Both the position numbers and the translations under genes were made by a program. 15,363 nt of DNA from an uncultured bacterium (GTDB taxonomy: Bacteria > Armatimonadota > UBA5829): the NCBI GenBank assembly GCA_963775535.1, contig CAVZJH010000066.1:1-15363 (forward strand). The letters are read 5' to 3'. A model generated the notes under the pieces. The model was not told the origin of the DNA. It saw only the letters and a program-made list of their open reading frames with translations, and searched no databases. Below are positions 3,009 to 11,153 of the stretch, piece after piece. Position 1 is the first letter of the stretch. Each line of letters begins with the position of its first letter.

Positions 3009-4016
3009 CTATATCGACGCTGCTATGGCCCCCGCCTGCGCGCCCGTGAGCGCCTTCTTCACCGCTGTCAGGATCTTTGCCTCGTCCGGCAGCGCGGAGA
3101 GCTCCAGTTCCCGGGAATACGGCATCGGGTTGTCCGCGAGGGTGACTCTGTCGATCGGCGCGTCGAGGTAGTCGAATGCGTGGTGCTGGATTTGATCCAC
3201 GATCTGCGCCCCGACCCCGCACATGGGCCAATCCTCTTCTACTATGACAACGTGGTTGGTCTTCTTTACGGACCTGACCATCGTTGCCACGTCCATCGGG
3301 CGCAGGGTCCGCAGGTCCACTACCTCCGCATTGATCCCCTCGTAAGCCAGCTTGTCGGCGGCCTTCATGGCCACGCTGACCATTCTGAGATAGGCGATAA
3401 TCGTGACGTCTGTTCCCTGCCGCTTGATATCCGCCTTTCCCAGCGGGATCGTGTATTCCTCGTCGGGAACTTCGCCCTTCATCGAATAGAGCAGTTCGTG
3501 CTCGAGGAATATGACGGGGTTATTATCCCGGATGGCGCTCTTTAAGAGGCCCTTGGCATCATAGGGCGTGGCCGCGGCAGCCACTTTCAGGCCCGGAACG
3601 TGCACAAACCAAGACTCCAGGTTCTGCGAGTGCTGTGCTCCGAGCTGCATTCCGGCTCCCTCCAGAGCCCGAATCACCATGGGAACACTGAGCTGACCAC
3701 CGCTCATGTATCTGAGCTTTGCGGCGTGGTTTACGATCTGGTCCATCGCCAGCACCGCGAAGTTGATGGTCATCATCTCCACCACAGGCCTGAGCCCCAG
3801 CATCGCCGCACCCGTCCCGATCCCCGCGAGGACCAGCTCGGAAATAGGGCTGTCCCGCACGCGCGTCTCGCCGAACTCCTCGAGCAGCCGCTCGGTCACC
3901 CGGTAAGCTCCCTGGTACTGCGCCACTTCTTCGCCTATGAGAAAGACGTTCTCATCACGCCGCATCTCCTCGCGAAGGGCATGGTTAAGAGCCTGTCTGT
4001 AGTATATCGACGGCAT
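3009..4016 (-). CDS. pdhB: 2-oxoacid (pyruvate/acetoin) dehydrogenase E1 component beta subunit
   Basis: The 335-aa product has the transketolase-like pyrimidine-binding and C-terminal domains of E1-beta (LIGEEVAQYQGAYRVTERLLEEFGETRVRDSPISE..., PMCGVGAQIV). An AAGGAG RBS lies 8 nt upstream of the ATG on the minus strand. It sits immediately downstream of the E1-alpha gene. Confidence 0.85.
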   Translation of the reverse strand: MPSIYYRQALNHALREEMRRDENVFLIGEEVAQYQGAYRVTERLLEEFGETRVRDSPISELVLAGIGTGAAMLGLRPVVEMMTINFAVLAMDQIVNHAAKLRYMSGGQLSVPMVIRALEGAGMQLGAQHSQNLESWFVHVPGLKVAAAATPYDAKGLLKSAIRDNNPVIFLEHELLYSMKGEVPDEEYTIPLGKADIKRQGTDVTIIAYLRMVSVAMKAADKLAYEGINAEVVDLRTLRPMDVATMVRSVKKTNHVVIVEEDWPMCGVGAQIVDQIQHHAFDYLDAPIDRVTLADNPMPYSRELELSALPDEAKILTAVKKALTGAQAGAIAASI

Positions 4017-4033
4017 CGCGGCACACTCCTTTC

Positions 4034-4198
4034 GAGTGGGGGGCTTTGCCCCCTAACCCCCACCAGAGACCGCCGTCTCTGGACTCTGCTGGGGCCAAGG
4101 GCCCCAGACCCCTGGCTCGCTTCGCGTCTATGCTCACCCTAACGGTGAGCATAGACGCGAAGCGCAATATGGGGGTCCAGGAGGCAAAGCCCCCACTT
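4034..4198. repeat. 165-bp nested palindromic element in the pdhA-pdhB intercistronic space
   Basis: An outer imperfect stem pairs GTGGGGGGCTTTGCC (4034-4050) with GGCAAAGCCCCCAC (4183-4196). Three internal hairpins lie inside it. The first is CCAGAGAC-cgcc-GTCTCTGG (4063-4082). The second is CTGGGGCC-aag-GGCCCCAG (4089-4107). The third is a perfect 20-bp stem, GCTTCGCGTCTATGCTCACC-ctaac-GGTGAGCATAGACGCGAAGC (4119-4163). Confidence 0.7.
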
Positions 4199-5154
4199 CA
4201 CGCGTATACGTCCTGCCACAGCGCTTCGGGCGGTGGCAGGGGTGATTTCTCAGCAAACTCAACAGCTTCTTCTATCTCGCTGTCCACATCCGCCTGTATC
4301 TTTTCGATGTCCTCCGGCGTCAGTATTCCCTCATCGAGGAGGACGGCGCCGAAGGTGACTATCGGATCGCGCGTGCGCCACTCCTCGATCTCGTTCCTCG
4401 ACCGATATGTGCCGGGGTCGGACATCGAGTGGCCGCGAAACCGATAGGTTACAGCCTCCACGAACATCGGGCGCTTTTCTTCCCGCACGTGCTTCATGGC
4501 TTTCTGGGCGACCTCGCAGACGGCCAGCACGTCCATTCCGTCCACGCTCTCCACTTCCATGGCGTAACACTGAGCGCGGCGGTGCAGGTTCGGCACAGCG
4601 GATGCGCGCTCCACCGCCGTGCCCATGCCGTATAGATTGTTCTCGCAGACGAACAGAATTGGCAGGTTCCACAGCGAGGCAACGTTGAGGGTTTCGTGGA
4701 ATGCGCCTTCGTTGACGGCGCCATCTCCAAAGAAGCTCAGGCATATCTGGTCTCCACCGCGATAGTTGATGGCGTAGCCGATCCCTGCCGCAAGGGGTAA
4801 TCCCCCGCCGACTATTGCAGTGCCGCCGAGGAATCGCCTGTCCACGTCGAAAAGGTGCATGGAACCGCCCTTGCCGCCCGAGACCCCCGTCGCCTTGCCG
4901 AACAACTCCGCCATGACGCGGCTGGGGCTCGCGCACCTGGCGAGCGCGTGGCCGTGGTCGCGGTAGGCGCCAATCACGTAGTCGTCCGGCCTGAGCGGCC
5001 ACGTGAATCCGCTGGCAACCGCCTCCTGGCCGATGTAGAGGTGCAGGAACCCGCGAACCTTCCCCTGTTCATACATTTCCCCCGCGGCTTCCTCGAACTT
5101 TCTGATCATCGCCATCTCGCGGTAGACGCCTATCTTGTCCTGCTTACTGAGCAT
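4198..5154 (-). CDS. pdhA: 2-oxoacid (pyruvate/acetoin) dehydrogenase E1 component alpha subunit (TPP-dependent)
   Basis: The 318-aa product has the TPP-binding motif region (GDGAVNEGAFHETLNVASLWNLPILFVCENNLYGMGT) and the typical E1-alpha N-terminus (LYIGQEAVASG). It is followed by the beta subunit. Confidence 0.85.
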   Translation of the reverse strand: MLSKQDKIGVYREMAMIRKFEEAAGEMYEQGKVRGFLHLYIGQEAVASGFTWPLRPDDYVIGAYRDHGHALARCASPSRVMAELFGKATGVSGGKGGSMHLFDVDRRFLGGTAIVGGGLPLAAGIGYAINYRGGDQICLSFFGDGAVNEGAFHETLNVASLWNLPILFVCENNLYGMGTAVERASAVPNLHRRAQCYAMEVESVDGMDVLAVCEVAQKAMKHVREEKRPMFVEAVTYRFRGHSMSDPGTYRSRNEIEEWRTRDPIVTFGAVLLDEGILTPEDIEKIQADVDSEIEEAVEFAEKSPLPPPEALWQDVYA

Positions 5155-5180
5155 TGCACACCCCAGGACCTAAAAAACTA

Positions 5181-6022
5181 TCTGGTTAGTCGCGTGGTAT
5201 GAGCTTCTGACCAGCGGTCCTGATTCAACATACCCAAATCCCATATCAAGCGCAATGCGTCTGAGTTCGGAGAATTTCGTCGGGGGTGTAGTATCTGGAG
5301 ATGGGGACGTGGTTTTTGGAGGGGGCAAGGTACTGGCCGATGGTGAGGATGTCGCAGTGGGCTTCGCGCAGATCGCGAATGGCTTCCAGCAGTTCGTCCC
5401 AAGTCTCGCCGACGCCGACCATCACGCCCGACTTGGTGCGGATCGAGGAATCTATGCCTTTTGCCTTCTTGAGCAGCGCGATGGACCTGGTGTAGAGAGC
5501 CTGGGGGCGAACGAAGGGGGTAGCAGCGTTCGACGGTTTCGATGTTGTGGTTAAGGATCTCGGGCTTCGCTTCTACAACAAGCCCCAGAATCGCTCGTCA
5601 CCCTGGAAATCTGGAATAAGCACCTCGACTGAACACTCCTCGACACCCTGGTGTATCAACCCTATGGTCTGGGCAAAAACGTGCGCACCCCCGTCGATTT
5701 GATCGTCCCGGGTAACGCTGGTAACCACCGCATGACGGAGCTGCAAATAAGCTGCGGCCTGGGCCACGCGACGAGGTTCGTCCTCGTCCACAGGCCCCGG
5801 CGCGCCGTGGTTCACCGCGCAGAAGCGGCAGTTGCGCGTGCAGGTGTTTCCGAGAATCATAAAGGCAGCAGTGCGAGAGTGCCAGCACTCGCCGATGTTA
5901 GGGCAGTTTGCGCTCTGGCAGACGGTGTGCAGGTGCGCGGACTCAACGAGCCTTTTCACGCCTTCGTAATTCTCTCCCGCGGGAGCTTTGGCTTTTATCC
6001 AGTCAGGGCGCTGCAATCTCAC
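5181..6022 (-). CDS. lipA: Lipoyl synthase LipA (radical SAM); the coding sequence is interrupted by three single-nucleotide frameshifts
   Basis: The N-terminal segment (GTG 6022 down to 5573) carries both LipA cysteine motifs, CxxxCPNxxEC and CTRxCxFC ([16 protein letters not shown]..., [14 protein letters not shown]). The remainder of LipA can be read on the minus strand in two other frames: ...[24 protein letters not shown], then [80 protein letters not shown], then [34 protein letters not shown] and a stop at 5181. The frame shifts fall near 5575, in the G5/C5 run near 5516-5520, and at the A3 run near 5270. Confidence 0.8.
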
Positions 6023-6163: not shown

Positions 6164-6192
6164 TTGCTAATGCGCAGCAGCCTTGGTAAAAT
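6164..6192 (+). promoter_or_regulatory. Sigma-70-like promoter candidate (TTGCTA -17- TAAAAT) upstream of the deaminase operon
   Basis: Read directly from the sequence: -35 TTGCTA at 6164-6169, a 17-nt spacer, and -10 TAAAAT at 6187-6192. It lies about 29 nt upstream of GTG 6221, in the divergent lipA/deaminase intergenic region. Confidence 0.35.
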
Positions 6193-6220: not shown

Positions 6221-6670
6221 GTGTCTGACCGACCTTCGTTTGATAGAGTGTATATGGATGTCGTGGATATCATCGCCAGGCGGTCGACGTGCCTGCGAAA
6301 ACACGTTGGGGCAGTGATCACCATCGACCACCGCATACTTTCGCACGGCTACAACGGCGTCCCCAGCGGCCAGGAGCACTGCTGCGATACGAAGCAATGC
6401 CTCAAGGACAGGGCGGGCACCGAAGAATACAAAGTTTGCGTGCATGCCGAGCAAAATGCCATCTGCCAGTGTGCCAAGCGCGGCCTCGCTCTGGAGGGCG
6501 CGACGGTGTATGTGAACGCCGACATCTGCATCACCTGCGCTAAGCTGATGATCTCCTCGGGGATTGCCCGGTGCGTGGTCAAGCGCGACCACAAGGGGAC
6601 CTCGGACGGAGCCGGACTTCTAATAAAATGCGGCGTGGAAGTGGTGGAGTGGCCGGATGGCGCATTCTGA
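6221..6670 (+). CDS. dCMP deaminase family (ComEB/Dcd-type) zinc-dependent deaminase
   Basis: The 149-aa product has the diagnostic motifs ARRSTCLRKHVGAVI, GYNGVPSG..HC, HAEQNAI (the zinc-binding H-x-E) and ICITCAKLMI (PCxxC). The start is GTG. Confidence 0.75.
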   Translation: MSDRPSFDRVYMDVVDIIARRSTCLRKHVGAVITIDHRILSHGYNGVPSGQEHCCDTKQCLKDRAGTEEYKVCVHAEQNAICQCAKRGLALEGATVYVNADICITCAKLMISSGIARCVVKRDHKGTSDGAGLLIKCGVEVVEWPDGAF

Positions 6671-7343
6671 CCCGACCCTGAAAGCGGTAGTATTCGATAT
6701 AGGGGCTACGCTGGTTACGGGACCGCCCGTTGCTCCCAACAAGGTCATTGCCGCGCTCATAGACGGTGCCAGCGCCGCTGAGGTTTCATCGGTGATCATG
6801 ACAACCGAACTGCTCTCCGCCGAGCACGCTTGCGCCGTGCTGCAGGCGAGGTTCGGTTCTCTGAGCGAGACGGCGGTTTCCGGAATCACCCGGCTTTGGA
6901 GATCTCAGATAACGGCGGCGGTGGGGATCGAAGGCGCGTGCGAGACCGCGATGTCGATCAAGCGGCGAGGGCTGAAGCTGGGGCTGTTATCGGACATCTG
7001 GAACCCGTATTACGCAAGTGTTCAGAGGGCGCTGCCGGAGGTCGTGAGGGCCGCGGACGCTGTTGTGCTGAGCTGCAGGACCGGGGCGCGCAAACCGGAG
7101 CGCGACAACTTCCAGGCAGTATTGGACGAGCTGGGATTGGCGCCGGGCGAGGTGGTAATGGTGGGGGATACCTATGCCCACGATATTCTTCCCGCTATCG
7201 AGATGGGAATGCCGACGGTGTGGGTGATGGCGAGGCCGGAGCGCGAGGCGGATTCGATTGTGCGCATCCTGAACGGGGAGAATCCGGCGCCGACGGTGAC
7301 GGTTTCCCACATAAGCCAGGTCGCGTGTCTGAAGATTTTCTAA
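6657..7343 (+). CDS. HAD-superfamily hydrolase; motif I is D-I-G-A-T rather than DxDxT
   Basis: Motif I is VVFDIGATLV. Motif II is LLSDIWNP. The motif III lysine is in ARKPERDNF. Motif IV is MVGDTYAHDI. The gene overlaps the deaminase by 14 nt, indicating translational coupling. Confidence 0.7.
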   Translation: MAHSDPTLKAVVFDIGATLVTGPPVAPNKVIAALIDGASAAEVSSVIMTTELLSAEHACAVLQARFGSLSETAVSGITRLWRSQITAAVGIEGACETAMSIKRRGLKLGLLSDIWNPYYASVQRALPEVVRAADAVVLSCRTGARKPERDNFQAVLDELGLAPGEVVMVGDTYAHDILPAIEMGMPTVWVMARPEREADSIVRILNGENPAPTVTVSHISQVACLKIF

Positions 7344-7360
7344 TCAAGAAAGAATAAACT

Positions 7361-7445
7361 TGGGAGGGTTTCTACCCTCACCCCTGCTGTGGACCCACTG
7401 GACCACAGCACCCCCTCTCCCTGTGAGGGTGAGGATGGAAACGCA
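7361..7445. repeat. Structured GC-rich nested inverted-repeat element in the HAD to ParB-like intergenic space; it shares the CCCTCACCCC core with the hairpin at 2846-2873
   Basis: Outer arms GTTTCTACCCTCACCC (7368-7383) and GGGTGAGGATGGAAAC (7427-7442) are imperfect reverse complements. Inner hairpins are GAGGG/CCCTC (7364-7379), GCTGTGG...CCACAGC (about 7385-7409) and CCCTC...GAGGG (7413-7429). Confidence 0.5.
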
Positions 7446-7479
7446 GCGATCCCAGAAAACCATAGAGAGGTGTTGAGGA

Positions 7480-8094
7480 ATGGAAATACAGCGAGTGGAA
7501 CGTCATAGTGTGGATGAACTGGTGGCCAACCTGCGCAGGGTGGGCATGTTCACCGACCCCGAGGCGCGCGTCTACAAGAACTCGGTAATCGAGCTCACCT
7601 CGTTTCACACAAATGAGATCGCGCCGGCCCAGCGATACGTGCTGGCGAGTGAGATCACAAAGGTGCGCGACTTGAAGTGGGCGCTGGCGGAGCACGCTGT
7701 GGACTTGTTCAGGCTCGATGGCTACGCGACTATCTGGCTGGAGGGCTACGACGATCCGATAGACGTTCTGCCGCCCGTTATCGAACAGTCCGCGGAGGCC
7801 GACGGCAGCGTAGTGAAGATTTTGAACGACGGTATGCACCGGGTCTACCTCGCGAGGATGGAGCGATCCCCGATCCAGGTGGTCTACATCCGCAATGTGC
7901 CGGAGCAGTATCCGTATTACGCGTTCCCGCTCGTGAACGGCTGGAACGATGTTGCGATCATGCAGGACCTGCCCGAGGGCTACATAAAGAAATGGCATCG
8001 CATCAAGAACTACAAGAGCCTTTACAGAGACTTCAACACCGGCTTCCAGAATGTCGGCGGGCCCAGAGGGCACTTCTCTAATGCCGGAAAGTAA
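7480..8094 (+). CDS. ParB/sulfiredoxin-fold (ParB-like nuclease domain) protein
   Basis: The 204-aa product contains VLPPVIEQSAEADGSVVKILNDGMHRVYLARMERSPIQVV. This matches the ParB/Srx core pattern: a Pi.v segment, then l.DGhHR..Aa, then an i.v segment. GAGAGG lies about 9 nt upstream of ATG 7480. The stop codon overlaps the start of the next gene. Confidence 0.5.
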   Translation: MEIQRVERHSVDELVANLRRVGMFTDPEARVYKNSVIELTSFHTNEIAPAQRYVLASEITKVRDLKWALAEHAVDLFRLDGYATIWLEGYDDPIDVLPPVIEQSAEADGSVVKILNDGMHRVYLARMERSPIQVVYIRNVPEQYPYYAFPLVNGWNDVAIMQDLPEGYIKKWHRIKNYKSLYRDFNTGFQNVGGPRGHFSNAGK

Positions 8095-9522
8095 TGATCT
8101 CGAGTTCATTGCGCTTCATTTCCCGGACAAGCTGAGGATCGTTAACCCCCGCGCTCGCCTCGGAGTTATTACGCTCTGGAGCAGGATCGAGTTTGTAGAG
8201 AGCAAGCTCGCTCAGATGGGGGTCGACCTGAACCCTGCAACTTCTAAAATAGCGGTCATCGGCAACCTCTACGGCAACGGCATTCCGCACTTGCTTCGCA
8301 ACCTGCTCTACAACCCGCAGATTCGCGACCTCGTGATATGCGGGGCGAACAAGTCCGGCTCCGCCGAGGAATTGATCGCGTTTTTCGAATCCGGGACCGA
8401 GCGCGCCACGAGCCTTGGAGAAAGCGTCACGCGAATAAAGGGGACAAGGCGGATCATCGACGACGCGCTGACCCCGGAGCATTTCTCGACGAGGCCGCGC
8501 ATCACGAGGTTCGGCGAACTCAGGGACTGCGGGGGGACCTGCGGGCTTACATTGCGGCGTGCTGCCCGGCCCAAGTGAGCGCGGAGCGTGTTAAGATCGA
8601 TCTGCCGGAGGTAAAGGTCACCCACTTCCCGAGCGAGCCGCGCAACCATAACGTGGTAACGGACACCCCGCTGGCGGCCTGGCGCGAGCTTATATTCCGC
8701 CTGGTGCGCTTCGGGCACCTGGTGAAGCTGCGAAAGGGCGACCGGCAGGAGCTGCCCAACGTGCGCGTGGTGGTGCGCGAGCCCGGGGAAGATGATACCG
8801 AGGAACTGGCGAAGTTCAACTTTTCCATTGACGAGCTCAGGCAGTATCAGCGCGACATGCTCCTCGGCCCGCTGCCGGAGGACCACTGCTACACCTACGG
8901 CAACCGGATTAGGGAATACTTCGGCTTCGATTCGCTTGAAAAGTTCGCCCAAAGGCTAAAAGCGAACCCGCAGGATCGGGACTGCTACCTCGCTCTGTGG
9001 GACAGCCATCACGACATCGACGCGGATGACGCTCCGTGCCTGGTCTCGCTGTTTTTCCGGGTGTTCGATGCCAGGCTGACCCTCACCGCGACCTACCGCA
9101 CCCACAACGCGCTCGATGCGTGGCTTAAGAATGTCTACGGGCTGATGAAGGCGCAGGAGATCGTGGCCGAAAAGGCGGGGCTGCCGGTGGGGCCGCTCAC
9201 GGTGATCAGCCACTCGATCAGCATTGACCCGTCCAAGTATGACGCCGCGCTGCGCGTGGCGAATGCCAGGGGGTTCTCGCTCGAGATCGACCCCAGCGGC
9301 CAGTTTATGGTGAGCGTGGAGGATGCGGAGATAGTGGTGCGGCACATGAACGATGACGGCTTCCTGCTCCACGAATACCGCTCCAAAAAGGCCGAGCGCA
9401 TCCAGCACGAGCTCAACCGCGACTGCGCGATCTCGGACATCAACCACGCGATGTATATAGGCCGGCAGCTCGCGAAGGCCGAGATTTGCTTGAGGAGCGG
9501 GGAAGAGTTCGAGGAAGGGTAG
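8081..9522 (+). CDS. Fusion protein: N-terminal MtrA-like domain (tetrahydromethanopterin S-methyltransferase subunit A family) joined to a C-terminal divergent thymidylate-synthase-fold domain; the frame shifts within the G6 run at 8542-8547
   Basis: The N-terminal segment is LGVITLWS...IAVIGNLYGNGIPHLLRNLLYNPQIRDLVICGANKSGS. This aligns by eye to the MtrA core (lGVvTLgS ... GIEKVvAN.ISNPNIRflIlCGSEVqGH). The C-terminus has TS-fold motifs: LKANPQDRDCYLALWD matches TS l.NP.SRR....AWN. DAPCLVSLFFRV matches the PCH nucleophile region with the Cys retained. YRTHNALDA matches QRSxD. SHSISI replaces GDAHIY. Frame 2 (8081-8578) and frame 1 (about 8540-9522) join at CTGCGGGGGGACC. An alternative start is ATG 8051. 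Confidence 0.6.
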
Positions 9523-9535
9523 GACTTCGGTTTTA

Positions 9536-9618
9536 GAATCGCTGAAGCGCTGAAATGAGATGAATGCGCTGAATCCATATCTTCAGCGTCATCACAAAAT
9601 TCAGCGTCTCAGCGATTC
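9536..9618 (+). repeat. 83-bp hairpin-rich repeat element, copy A
   Basis: The sequence is GAATCGCTGAAGCGCTGAAA...CGCTGAATCCATATCTTCAGCGTCATCAC.AAATTCAGCGTCTCAGCGATTC. It has 19-bp terminal inverted repeats with 2 mismatches and an internal stem GATGA..CGCTGAA/TTCAGCG-TCATC. It is about 90% identical to copy B. Confidence 0.8.
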
Positions 9619-9694
9619 GCTGCACTCAAATCTCGAAACATCGGGGCGTGGGTTTCTAAGGGTGAACTTCATTCAAGGCTAACGGAGGTCACAG

Positions 9695-10225
9695 TTGGAT
9701 GTGGATAAATTCATCAATTGCTTTGTAGATGCCATCAACCGTGCCCAAAAGGAGCCAGTTTGGGATAACGAATCTCCCGCCAGCGTCTACATTGGAGAAC
9801 AGTGGGATCAGGACAGGCACGAATGGCGAATTAAGCCTTACGAGTCGGTTGACTGGATCGCACCGTTAGAGCAGCAAATCAAACTCTCTTTTCCCAGGCT
9901 CTACCGCTCGCTTGTGACACGCTACATTTTCCCGGCCTTCGATATCGACGATCTCAACATATCTTTCCTGGGCAATACGCCAGAGGGCACGGACTTCCGT
10001 GAGATGAGAGATCGTCTGCTGACAAGCGGTATGTCTCACATATTGCTGCCTAACGGGTATCTTCACTTTGCAAATCCGCTTGACGGGCGAATGTTTGATC
10101 CGCTGTGCTTTGACACGAAGCGAACGAACGAGCACGGCGACTGCCCCATTGTCAGGATCGATCATGAGGCGATATTAGGTTACAACGAATCATCTATAGT
10201 TGAGGAGATTCGCGCCGTCGTTTGA
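9695..10225 (+). CDS. Low-GC hypothetical protein that resembles SUKH/SMI1-KNR4-type immunity proteins
   Basis: GGAGG lies 6 nt before TTG 9695. The 176-aa product has SUKH-like segments (WIAPLEQQIKLSFPRLYRSLVTRYIFPAF; LLPNGYLHFANPLDGRMFDPLCFD). GC is visibly lower, at about 50%, than the flanking DNA. The assignment is by eye only. Confidence 0.4.
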   Translation: MDVDKFINCFVDAINRAQKEPVWDNESPASVYIGEQWDQDRHEWRIKPYESVDWIAPLEQQIKLSFPRLYRSLVTRYIFPAFDIDDLNISFLGNTPEGTDFREMRDRLLTSGMSHILLPNGYLHFANPLDGRMFDPLCFDTKRTNEHGDCPIVRIDHEAILGYNESSIVEEIRAVV

Positions 10226-10300
10226 GGGGTTGGTAGAGCGGATCATCCAAGGAGTTATATGACGTTTCCTTCGGGGTTTGTTTCTGACCACCACATGTCT

Positions 10301-10383
10301 GAATCGCTGAAGCGCTGAAAGCGGATGAGAACGCTGAATCCATATCTTCAGCGTCATCACGAAATTCAGCGTCTCAGCGATTC
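10301..10383 (+). repeat. 83-bp hairpin-rich repeat element, copy B, a direct repeat of 9536-9618
   Basis: The two copies are identical except for about 7 substitutions, which are clustered in the internal bulge segment (TGAGATGAATG in A, GCGGATGAGAA in B) and one A/G position. Confidence 0.8.
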
Positions 10384-10417
10384 AATGCGCCACCACAACT
10401 AAGAAGCGGATTTTGTG

Positions 10418-10442
10418 TTTCGGGAATCTTGTTCCCGAAACG
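10418..10442. terminator. 10-bp perfect stem-loop GTTTCGGGAA-tcttg-TTCCCGAAAC between convergent genes
   Basis: I read the palindrome directly. It lies 30 nt beyond the stop of the minus-strand secreted-protein gene and downstream of the plus-strand cassette. There is no clear U-tract on either strand, so it could be a terminator or an mRNA-stabilising hairpin. Confidence 0.35.
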
Positions 10443-10472
10443 AACCGTGCATATCGGGAATACCAGCCCCCG

Positions 10473-11153
10473 TCACTCGCTCTTTGGCTGCACGTAATCT
10501 CCCAGCCAGCCCCAGACCGCTACTTTGATGATTGAACTGAACTGGCTTGGGTCGTAGGGCGTGGTCTGCAACTTCTGGCCGTCGAGATAGGCGGTTACAA
10601 GTTTGGCATCGGGGTCCAGGCGCAGGCCTACTACCGCCCATTTCTTGGGAGGCAGGACCGACCTCGTTATAAGGTTCGTCATGCCCATTTTGCCGTTGCA
10701 GATGCCAACACCGTAAGAGGTTTCACCGTGGCTTGCCTGAACCACTGCAACCGACATATCATCCCGGTCATTGCCGGAGCGCACGAGGAAGTTTACGAAA
10801 CCACCACTCCCCTGATCCGCGGCAGGCGGCAGGTAAACGCGCGCGCTCAAGTCCACGGTCCCAGCGCGCGGCACCTGAACATTGTGAAAAGCACACGCCA
10901 CAGGCTGCGTGTCCCGGTTAAGGTACATGCAATAAAGAGGAGGCTGCTCACCCATGCAAACAGTAGTGACGCTGTGGACGGCCGTCCAGGTGCTGATATT
11001 GCCGCTGTCGAAGTTGTCGAAAAAGACTGGATTGCCGTCATTGCGGAGTTGGAAATCCGTAACGTAAATGCCTCCGCCGGCGTGACATGCGAGTGGCGCT
11101 GCAAGGCACAGCGCGACAAAAGCCAACACGGTAAAACCAGTAACTGATCTCAT
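10473..11153 (-). CDS. Secreted hypothetical protein with an N-terminal signal peptide and a beta-rich domain of unknown function
   Basis: GGAGGA lies 6 nt upstream of the ATG on the minus strand. The N-terminus MRSVTGFTVLAFVALCLAAPLACHA is a typical Sec signal. The 226-aa product has Gly/Asn/Asp-rich composition and no recognisable catalytic motif. Confidence 0.65.
   Translation of the reverse strand: MRSVTGFTVLAFVALCLAAPLACHAGGGIYVTDFQLRNDGNPVFFDNFDSGNISTWTAVHSVTTVCMGEQPPLYCMYLNRDTQPVACAFHNVQVPRAGTVDLSARVYLPPAADQGSGGFVNFLVRSGNDRDDMSVAVVQASHGETSYGVGICNGKMGMTNLITRSVLPPKKWAVVGLRLDPDAKLVTAYLDGQKLQTTPYDPSQFSSIIKVAVWGWLGDYVQPKSE

Follow-up and report, generated by a model that had tools for sequence, protein, structure and literature searches.

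A candidate chromosomal deoxyuridylate-to-thymidylate operon around a non-canonical thymidylate synthase fusion in an uncultured Armatimonadota bacterium

Two forms of thymidylate synthesis are known, that of ThyA and that of ThyX. In a contig from an uncultured member of the Armatimonadota (GCA_963775535.1, CAVZJH010000066.1), a gene for a dCMP-deaminase-like protein is followed by genes for a HAD-superfamily hydrolase, a ParB-like protein and a divergent protein of the thymidylate synthase (TS) fold, which raises the question whether this locus provides thymidylate or a differently modified pyrimidine nucleotide. A first-pass annotation of the 15,363 nucleotides analysed here, referred to as the window, had left the choice between an alternative thymidylate route, a nucleoside natural-product pathway, DNA hypermodification and defence. 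A divergent thymidylate pathway is the simplest reading of the locus.

Layout of the operon and reading frame of gene 4

The four co-directional genes of the first-pass annotation are real, as open reading frames were called on the forward strand of the window at positions 6221-6670, 6657-7343, 7480-8094 and from 8081 onward. Direct reading of the sequence likewise bears out the two 14-nt overlaps that had been claimed, between genes 1 and 2 (6657-6670) and between genes 3 and 4 (8081-8094); the latter recurs in a relative (L001), in which the corresponding genes span 7400-8014 and 8001-9455. The sigma-70-like promoter candidate at 6164-6192 (forward strand, TTGCTA and TAAAAT separated by a 17-nt spacer, with TG before the -10 element) is present with 9 of 12 matches 29 nt upstream of gene 1 and constitutes weak evidence on its own, because a scan of the region gave three sites of this kind where 1.4 ± 1.2 would be expected. 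It sits in the intergenic region between lipA and the deaminase gene, which is an appropriate place. The 136-nt spacer separating genes 2 and 3 (7344-7479, forward strand) can fold into a nested hairpin lacking a U-tract (-47.2 kcal/mol, z = -2.2). The corresponding spacers of relatives measure 12-135 nt and do not align with it; as the hairpin is not conserved, we rejected it as a shared regulatory RNA. In the window, neither the Rfam nor the tRNA scan gave a match.

Gene 4 had been taken as one intact reading frame, and this did not hold. Frame +2 is open from 8081 to 8578 with a stop codon at 8576-8578, the TS part resides in frame +1 at about 8527-9522, and tblastn with a homologue (P0001) leaves frame +2 at 8524 and enters frame +1 at 8527. 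The break corresponds to a deficit of one nucleotide in a run of six G at 8531-8536 (forward strand). When a single G is added to this run, the result is a reading frame of 480 aa, of which 97-100% aligns with homologues of 477-509 aa. The frameshift is probably an assembly or sequencing error, because the neighbouring lipA carries at least three frame changes. That gene 4 is instead a true pseudogene in a decaying operon, a real inactivation in the source organism that would also count against a thymidylate function, appears improbable: the stop codon in the N-terminal frame and the shift of frame within 8524-8536 are compatible with decay, but the break falls inside a homopolymer, both halves are otherwise intact, free of further stops and 73-75% identical to their homologues, and the state of lipA is typical of an indel-prone assembly rather than of selective decay of one gene.

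Domains and active site of the TS fusion

The repaired gene 4 product (480 aa; homologues about 485 aa) consists of an MtrA-fold N-terminal domain with linker (8081-8536, frame +2), a ThyA-superfamily catalytic core of the methanogen type (8536-9288, frame +1) and a C-terminal PterinBD-DUF4346 domain that ends with the stop codon (9289-9522), all on the forward strand. The first-pass annotation had described a fusion of a divergent TS fold with an MtrA-like domain; the third domain, a clear member of PF14251 (67.8 bits, cut-off 29.6), had been missed. PterinBD-DUF4346 is also matched within TIGR00284, a dihydropteroate synthase-like protein, and within NF002128 (long MtrA), and since some archaeal MtrA-like proteins have MtrA-fold and DUF4346 domains side by side, it looks as if the TS core had been inserted between the two. 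Profile searches with the four products matched PF00383, PF00702, ParB-CE and PF00303; with 15 bits against a threshold of 25, the N-terminal domain did not reach MtrA (PF04208), and in place of the cobalt ligand His84 of MtrA there is Ser in the gene 4 product and in 91 of the 113 family representatives compared.

The core belongs to the ThyA superfamily by its TS fold and by its score to PF00303 (28.2 bits for the window fragment, cut-off 24.3; 24.7-48.7 bits for homologues). Its best-scoring curated family is the methanogen thymidylate synthase TIGR03283 (2.7e-34, profile positions 10-193 of 201), of which it is a relative and not a member, as 118.4 bits fall short of the cut-off of 174.55. 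Residues were counted in 113 representatives at 50% identity and are given in E. coli ThyA numbering. Cys146, encoded at 9037-9039 in the window, and Pro145 are invariant, Tyr94, Arg166 and Asn177 are each present in 112 of the 113 proteins and Arg126 in 93%, so that the catalytic Pro-Cys motif, Arg166 and Tyr94 of the superfamily are all in place. Abditibacteriota possess versions with a tandem second copy of TS plus DUF4346 in which Cys is replaced by Ser, as expected for a TS that is an obligate dimer.

Position 177 distinguishes enzymes for uracil (Asn) from those specific for cytosine (Asp) (PMC13326640), and by the Asn found here the family falls among the TS homologues specific for dUMP rather than dCMP. 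The folate site, on the other hand, deviates from the pattern of methylating ThyA enzymes (a bulky hydrophobic residue at 143, His147, Gln165 and Asp169), although this rule comes from folate-dependent enzymes and methanogen-type TS may not obey it. The window protein has Asp at 143, where the family shows Ser, Gly, Asn, His, Asp or Lys and never a bulky hydrophobic residue; position 147 is Leu, 165 is Phe or Tyr, 127 is variable, and 169 is Asn in the window protein (Asn in 61 and Asp in 45 of the 113 representatives). Acidic residues at 143 mark hydroxymethylases and hydroxylases (PMC13326640). Flavin-dependent 5-hydroxy-dCMP synthase combines D169N, N177D and an acidic residue 143 (PMC13326640; PDB 9iqc); of these three features, the window protein shares Asn169 and the acidic residue (Asp143), whereas 177 is Asn. 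We rejected D169N as a hydroxylase signature from which function could be called, as it does not define the family and residue 177 stays Asn.

Partner proteins, distribution and neighbourhoods

Gene 1 (6221-6670, forward strand) starts with GTG and encodes a dCMP-deaminase-like zinc deaminase of 149 aa that retains the HAE and CxxC motifs, in the form of CVHAEQNA and CITCAKL, as do 18 orthologues. These motifs and a profile score of 66.9 bits to PF00383 (cut-off 25) assign it to the dCMP deaminases, in agreement with the match to phrog_174 dCMP deaminase (2.2e-40), while the score to the ComEB equivalog TIGR02571 (96.8 bits) remains under the cut-off of 219.45. In one Bacillota MAG and two further loci the same operon slot is occupied by a non-homologous dCTP deaminase (98.2 bits to TIGR02274, cut-off 92.8). 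This points to dUMP as the TS substrate, and two unrelated routes to dU nucleotides have therefore been selected beside the TS fusion. The deaminase-to-TS logic put forward in the first-pass annotation is upheld by this displacement, by a linkage that is kept across phyla and by the uracil-specifying Asn177.

Gene 2 (6657-7343, forward strand; 228 aa) encodes a HAD-superfamily hydrolase (PF00702, 55.3 bits) with the nucleophilic Asp and HAD motifs II-IV. Its motif I, FDIGATL, is atypical in that it lacks DxD: the general acid at Asp+2 is replaced by Gly, in at least 90% of the 25 orthologues compared. Judged from these motifs, the protein may catalyze chemistry other than ordinary phosphomonoester hydrolysis. 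It is weakly similar to YjjG-type pyrimidine nucleotidases (8e-9).

Gene 3 (7480-8094, forward strand; 204 aa) encodes ParB-CE, a 'ParB-like catalytic effector' (PF24392), and is placed in the ParB/sulfiredoxin (Srx) superfamily by profile, fold and the nucleotide-binding motif DGxHR, present as NDGMHR. It is 65-92% identical across Armatimonadota. A sequence search of the PDB with ParB-CE gave no match and a BFVD search returned only generic viral ParB/Srx proteins. The protein shares only 8-13% sequence identity with the enzymes of the superfamily (sulfiredoxin, the free serine kinase SerK/SbnI and Atu1540), from which it differs by a distinct conserved C-terminal tail rich in basic and aromatic residues (KKWHRI..YK.LYR.FN), and it lacks a DNA-binding HTH domain.

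The TS-fusion family comprises 537 clusters at 50% identity (E ≤ 1e-30) from Armatimonadota, Bacillota, Thermodesulfobacteriota, Nitrospirota, KSB1 and a few tailed phages, and the best 150 hits of the representative search are nearly all full-length fusions. Cultured carriers include Desulfobacca acetoxidans, Desulfacinum infernum, Desulfovirgula thermocuniculi and Desulfofundulus thermobenzoicus; sulfate reducers and syntrophs, which we take to be strict anaerobes, are numerous among the named carriers. Comparison of neighbourhoods confirmed that deaminase and HAD genes are co-located with the fusion, since deaminase, HAD, ParB-CE and TS occur together, in different surroundings, in each of the 12 Armatimonadota-like loci whose flanks are long enough. 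In 23 of 41 loci outside Armatimonadota and Bacillota the TS fusion stands alone, so the enzyme appears self-sufficient for its core reaction. The chromosomal neighbours are housekeeping genes (his genes, dnaB, mazG, the rib operon), whereas in tailed phages the TS fusion and ParB-CE lie beside ribonucleotide reductase (RNR) and replication genes. Within 8-kb flanks of the fusion, the thyA motif PCHxx[FYW]Q was not found, and the thyX motif RHR-x7-S occurred only in one spurious reading frame, a His_biosynth gene in four near-identical loci of one genome.

Proposed function, alternatives and relation to known systems

We propose, at about even odds, that the four genes form a chromosomal deoxyuridylate-to-thymidylate operon around a non-canonical thymidylate synthase. 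The gene 1 product would deaminate dCMP to dUMP. The gene 4 product would act as a dimeric ThyA-superfamily enzyme whose conserved Cys attacks C6 of dUMP and which transfers a one-carbon unit from a reduced pterin to C5. We infer dTMP as the product, and instead of the classical folate-binding elements of ThyA, the MtrA-fold and DUF4346 domains would serve as an accessory module that holds or recycles the cofactor. ParB-CE would be a nucleotide-binding partner on which TS function or the handling of the product probably depends, because it travels with the TS even in phages, and the HAD protein an accessory phosphohydrolase acting on a nucleotide. The kinship of the core with the methanogen enzymes, the near-invariance of catalytic residues and Asn177, the constant company of the four genes in Armatimonadota-like loci, the exchange of deaminases, the housekeeping contexts and frequent solitary occurrence of the fusion, the Cys-to-Ser second copy in Abditibacteriota, the lack of defence matches and source annotations as thymidylate synthase all argue for this function. 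Against it stand residue 143, which is acidic in the window protein as in hydroxymethylases and hydroxylases (PMC13326640), positions 147, 165 and 169, which are also unlike ThyA, and the TIGR03283 score below cut-off; furthermore, a ParB-like protein of its own would be superfluous for a plain TS, yet the two travel together in phages.

We put forward tentatively that TS fusion and ParB-CE may constitute a distinct two-component system for C5 of pyrimidines and not a decorated ThyA. It would be either a new thymidylate route or a cellular and phage-borne synthesis of 5-hydroxymethyl-dUMP. In the former case, one-carbon transfer might proceed from a non-folate carrier on the MtrA-fold/DUF4346 module or, alternatively, hydroxymethylation might be followed by ParB-CE-dependent activation and reduction, so that dihydrofolate is not formed. 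In the latter, whole lineages of anaerobic bacteria and phages would make 5-hydroxymethyl-dUMP for DNA or a metabolite.

A rather unlikely alternative is that the product of the TS-fold enzyme is not dTMP but a dUMP modified differently at C5, of which 5-hydroxymethyl-dUMP is the most plausible, with ParB-CE as a dedicated kinase for this non-canonical nucleotide, the HAD protein as a phosphatase and a product destined for DNA or a small metabolite. The residues at 143 and the prevalence of Asn169 agree with this, as such features go with hydroxymethylation or hydroxylation in phage enzymes (PMC13326640), and so do the pairing of TS fusion and ParB-CE beside phage RNR and replication genes and the presence of phosphotransferases (sulfiredoxin, free serine kinase) in the ParB/Srx fold. 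As a kinase, ParB-CE would be an analogue of the cognate dNMP kinases with which phages hypermodify their DNA. Nevertheless, position 169 is no fixed signature, given Asp in 45 of the 113 representatives, the higher Z to short phage enzymes perhaps reflects the compact core only, and the locus is not linked to a glycosyltransferase, an amidotransferase or any other gene for downstream modification. The broad chromosomal inheritance over several phyla, in housekeeping contexts and often as a single gene, also speaks against modification, and the presumed strict anaerobiosis of many carriers argues against an O2-dependent hydroxylase version. We know of no modified pyrimidine in the DNA of cultured carriers.

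A nucleoside antibiotic or antimetabolite module of the MilA/BcmA type, making a 5-hydroxymethyl-pyrimidine, is very improbable: Asn177 specifies uracil and not cytosine, genes for a nucleosidase, a methyltransferase, a ThiD-like kinase, a transporter or resistance are absent from the conserved cluster, the locus in its ordinary chromosomal contexts has no link to natural-product genes such as those for a glycosidase, a methyltransferase or sugars, and the distribution together with the ParB-CE identity within Armatimonadota fits core metabolism rather than a sporadic secondary-metabolite cluster. We give hardly any credence to an anti-phage function, in which the deoxynucleotide pool would be depleted or altered. 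The homology of gene 1 to anti-phage dCTP deaminases (PADLOC dCTPase 7.2e-24; NF041025 3.7e-16) and the Pfam name 'catalytic effector' of the partner are in its favour; however, the homology is limited to the deaminase domain shared with these proteins of 437-630 aa, HAD, ParB-CE and TS have no match in PADLOC-DB 2.0, gene order is stable in non-island contexts with no defence genes nearby, and phages themselves carry the TS and ParB-CE pair.

The combination had been put forward as a candidate undescribed module. A full-text literature search indeed yielded no publication on the three-domain TS architecture, DUF4346/PterinBD or the ParB-CE partner; databases, however, already name gene 4 homologues 'thymidylate synthase' or 'DUF4346 domain-containing protein', and Pfam covers both ParB-CE and DUF4346. 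The family is large and phylogenetically wide, with a ThyA core between MtrA-fold and DUF4346 domains, an altered folate pocket and a ParB-like partner. Should these anaerobes have no other thymidylate synthase, the family would solve in a new way the cofactor problem of a reaction that is essential and a drug target, and DUF4346 and ParB-CE, two domains of hitherto unassigned role, would gain a function. Should it make 5-hydroxymethyl-dUMP instead, cells would possess a counterpart to the chemistry by which phages hypermodify their DNA. The cultured carriers render either outcome directly testable.

Compared with canonical folate-dependent ThyA (PF00303; E. coli), the fusion has a polar or small residue for Leu143, Leu for His147, Phe or Tyr for Gln165, Asn or Asp at Asp169, a variable Arg127 and extra domains on both sides. 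T4 dCMP hydroxymethylase, the CMP hydroxymethylase MilA and flavin-dependent 5-hydroxy-dCMP synthase (PDB 9iqc; PMC13326640) carry the cytosine-specific Asp177 in place of Asn; these phage and antibiotic TS homologues lack MtrA-like and DUF4346 domains, and the hydroxylase needs O2, whereas many carriers here are anaerobes. MtrA, the corrinoid-binding subunit of methyl-H4MPT:CoM methyltransferase (PDB 5laa, 5l8x), has His84 where gene 4 proteins mostly have Ser, and the gene 4 product has no membrane anchor, nor do other mtr genes accompany it. The bifunctional DHFR-TS of protozoa and plants also joins TS to a domain that serves the pterin cofactor, a functional analogy only, as the MtrA-fold and DUF4346 flanks bear no sequence or fold relation to DHFR and a reductase activity would be purely hypothetical. 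Closest are the methanogen enzymes (TIGR03283), a ThyA branch that to our knowledge has never been fully reconstituted biochemically. They share with gene 4 the compact core of about 200 aa and presumed use of a non-folate pterin; their model covers only about 200 residues, so that the archaeal enzymes are without the two flanking domains, whereas gene 4 adds the MtrA-fold N-terminal domain, the C-terminal DUF4346 domain and the ParB-CE partner.

Organization of the operon and its reading frames

Four open reading frames on the plus strand, starting at positions 6221, 6657, 7480 and 8081 of a window of about 60% G+C, bear out the co-directional arrangement given in the first-pass annotation. 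They encode a dCMP-deaminase-like protein (gene 1, 6221-6670, 149 aa), a HAD-superfamily protein (gene 2, 6657-7343, 228 aa), a ParB-CE protein (gene 3, 7480-8094, 204 aa) and a thymidylate synthase (TS) fusion protein (gene 4), whose TS-like part ends at 9522. The two 14-nt overlaps described earlier are evident in the sequence itself, between genes 1 and 2 at 6657-6670 and between genes 3 and 4 at 8081-8094. The promoter-like site at 6164-6192 was likewise found by a motif scan but is weakly supported, as three sites occurred in the region where 1.4 are expected. The 136-nt spacer between the HAD and ParB-CE genes (7344-7479) is predicted to form a nested GC-rich hairpin (-47 kcal/mol, z = -2.2). 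The corresponding spacers of relatives have lengths of 12-135 nt and differ in sequence to the point of being non-alignable; the one at relative locus L016 contains a palindrome unlike that of the window.

Gene 4 is not the single intact reading frame it had been taken for: frame +2 ends in a stop at 8578, and the TS-like part continues in frame +1. In a tblastn search with the homologue P0001, the alignment changed frame between 8524 and 8527, adjoining a run of six G residues (8531-8536). Addition of one G yields a 480-aa protein that aligns over 97-100% of its length with proteins of 477-509 aa, at identities of up to 75%. Just upstream, the lipoyl synthase gene lipA (5155-6022, minus strand) is broken up among three reading frames, changing frame at least three times. 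Its first 149 residues form a single open reading frame, and two segments of 18 and 11 residues lie in others. This suggests that the assembly is prone to indels, and the break in gene 4 is therefore treated as an error. That gene 4 is a true pseudogene in the source organism is improbable, given the position of the break at a homopolymer and the frameshifts in lipA.

Together with the genes for the 2-oxoacid dehydrogenase subunits E1 alpha (4198-5154) and E1 beta (3009-4016), both also on the minus strand, lipA belongs to an ordinary lipoate-dependent dehydrogenase cluster (3009-6022) that lies upstream of the operon in divergent orientation. Just downstream of the operon, the G+C content falls to about 50% (9500-10500), and an open reading frame at 9695-10225 with weak similarity to SMI1/KNR4 (SUKH) proteins (E ~0.009) may be an acquired immunity-type gene.

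Domains and active site of the TS-fusion protein

Instead of the two-domain fusion of MtrA and TS originally proposed, three domains were found, the additional one being a C-terminal PterinBD-DUF4346 domain (PF14251, 67.8 bits). The core is a ThyA-superfamily domain that matches PF00303 above threshold. Its best curated relative is the methanogen-type TS (TIGR03283, 2.7e-34); with a score of 118.4 bits, below the cut-off of 174.55, the gene 4 product is a relative and not a member of this equivalog. As the long-MtrA model NF002128 matches both the N-terminal (profile positions 149-230) and the C-terminal domain (277-366) in neighbouring parts of the profile, the TS core probably sits within an otherwise contiguous MtrA-like/DUF4346 unit. 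In homologues of 786-802 aa from Abditibacteriota and others (P0028, P0051, P0112), the MtrA-like domain is followed by two tandem TS+DUF4346 modules, and in P0051 the catalytic cysteine of the second TS copy is replaced by serine (VPSLTSLFF). The 786-aa Abditibacteriota proteins thus amount to a covalently fused pseudo-heterodimer, which supports a dimeric TS-fold enzyme.

Residues were mapped via HMMER alignments onto solved TS structures and counted in 113 full-length representatives at 50% identity (E. coli ThyA numbering). Cys146 and Pro145 are present in all of them, Tyr94, Arg166 and Asn177 in 99% and Arg126 in 93%. According to a published rule, Asn177 goes along with uracil and not cytosine substrates (PMC13326640), and would mark the gene 4 family as acting on a uracil substrate. 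Differences from ThyA are found on the cofactor side of the pocket, where position 147 is Leu, position 165 Phe or Tyr, and position 169 Asn (61/113) or Asp (45/113). Position 143, Asp in the window protein, is occupied by S, G, N, H, D or K family-wide and never by a bulky hydrophobic residue. In phage enzymes an acidic residue 143 accompanies hydroxymethylation or hydroxylation, and D169N has been suggested to identify flavin-dependent 5-hydroxy-dCMP synthases (PMC13326640). We rejected assignment as a hydroxylase, because position 169 is variable and position 177 remains Asn. The polar residue at 143 is in line with a hydroxymethylase, and the enzyme may be one.

Partner proteins and distribution

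The gene 1 product is a predicted dCMP-deaminase-type zinc deaminase (PF00383, 66.9 bits; phrog_174 'dCMP deaminase', 2.2e-40) with conserved HAE and CxxC motifs; its ComEB match falls below the model cut-off. In a Bacillota MAG the first operon slot is occupied by a bona fide dCTP deaminase instead (TIGR02274, 98.2 bits, cut-off 92.8). The two deaminases are non-homologous, yet both convert dC to dU and take the same operon position. We infer from this displacement, as the strongest evidence available, that a deoxyuridine nucleotide is the substrate of the TS-fold enzyme. The combination of deaminase and TS put forward in the first-pass annotation therefore stands, and its logic is classical.

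The HAD protein (PF00702, 55.3 bits) retains the nucleophilic Asp and motifs II-IV. Its motif I (6690-6710) reads FDIGATL rather than DxDGT, such that the general acid/base Asp+2 is replaced by Gly, as in at least 90% of 25 orthologues; this is unusual in a phosphomonoesterase. The gene 3 product matches PF24392 'ParB CE' (E = 3.6e-61), which UniRef expands to 'ParB-like catalytic effector'. Its DGxHR motif is invariant, and its conservation (62-92% identity) exceeds that of the TS. In delta-type genomes its gene can be unlinked from that for TS. Genes for HhH-GPD DNA glycosylases adjoin the TS operon of one genome from Armatimonadota (L004, 9583-10419) and, in a delta-type genome, a ParB-CE gene that is not linked to TS (L097, 6852-7535), a neighbourhood that may be coincidental.

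With 4359 representatives at E<=1e-3, and 537 when the threshold is tightened to E<=1e-30, the TS-fusion family is large; of the 150 best matches almost every one is full-length. When a single genome was scanned for each species, the family was detected in 167 species, among them Armatimonadota MAGs, Bacillota (Desulfofundulus thermobenzoicus, Desulfovirgula thermocuniculi), Thermodesulfobacteriota (Desulfacinum, Desulfobacca, Syntrophobacterales), Nitrospirota (Magnetominusculus) and Vulcanimicrobiota, and it also occurs in KSB1. Many of the named carriers are sulfate reducers or syntrophs, known as strict anaerobes. Partner genes were tallied for loci flanked on each side by 2.5 kb or more: deaminase, HAD and ParB-CE genes accompanied all 12 Armatimonadota-like loci and two of three from Bacillota, the third having ParB-CE only. 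Among 41 loci from other lineages, 23 had no partner, eight had deaminase and HAD, seven ParB-CE only, two dCTP deaminase, HAD and ParB-CE, and one deaminase and ParB-CE. The flanks vary by genome (his genes, glycyl-radical enzyme, dnaB, mazG, rib genes).

The TS-fusion is also present on four IMG/VR contigs, two of which clearly come from tailed phages with genes for baseplate J, spike, class II RNR and helicase. Both of these encode the TS-fusion together with ParB-CE and a small cupin (L092, 3421-6448; L093, 6401-9479), and neither contig carries the deaminase or HAD gene. The pair of TS and ParB-CE therefore looks like a portable functional core. For a distant member of the family, P0361 (L086, 8001-11340; JGI contig Ga0503111_000031), the surroundings resemble a mobile element (N6 methyltransferase, DUF927 primase, ParM-like protein); its neighbours are genes for a ThiC-like radical SAM protein and for a protein of 223 aa weakly similar to ThyX (E = 2.5e-4).

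Proposed pathway and relation to known systems

We put forward, with roughly even confidence, that the operon provides a non-canonical thymidylate route from dUMP. The gene 1 product would deaminate dCMP to dUMP, with Dcd deaminating dCTP instead in some lineages. In the dimeric TS-fold enzyme the cysteine would attack C6 of dUMP and a one-carbon unit would be transferred from a reduced pterin to C5, yielding dTMP. The MtrA-fold and DUF4346 domains may substitute for the classical folate-binding elements of ThyA or handle the cofactor, ParB-CE could be a nucleotide-binding partner needed for function or product handling, and HAD an accessory phosphohydrolase. The proposal builds on the observed domains, residues, synteny and deaminase displacement; the product, the cofactor and the roles of ParB-CE and HAD are deduced from these. 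A nucleoside-antibiotic (natural-product) module, suggested at first, is very unlikely, as the expected companion genes are missing. The same applies to a defence module, which we regard as scarcely credible; HAD, ParB-CE and TS have no match among the PADLOC models.

The claim that the system is undescribed holds in so far as no experimental or comparative description of it was found in the searchable literature; databases, on the other hand, do name the gene 4 protein ('thymidylate synthase' or 'DUF4346 domain-containing protein'), and Pfam models cover the accessory families. The gene 4 enzyme falls within the ThyA superfamily, and the pairing of deaminase with TS follows a classical logic. 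New are the combination of three domains in one protein, the changes in the cofactor pocket, the conservation of ParB-CE as a partner and a HAD protein without Asp+2.
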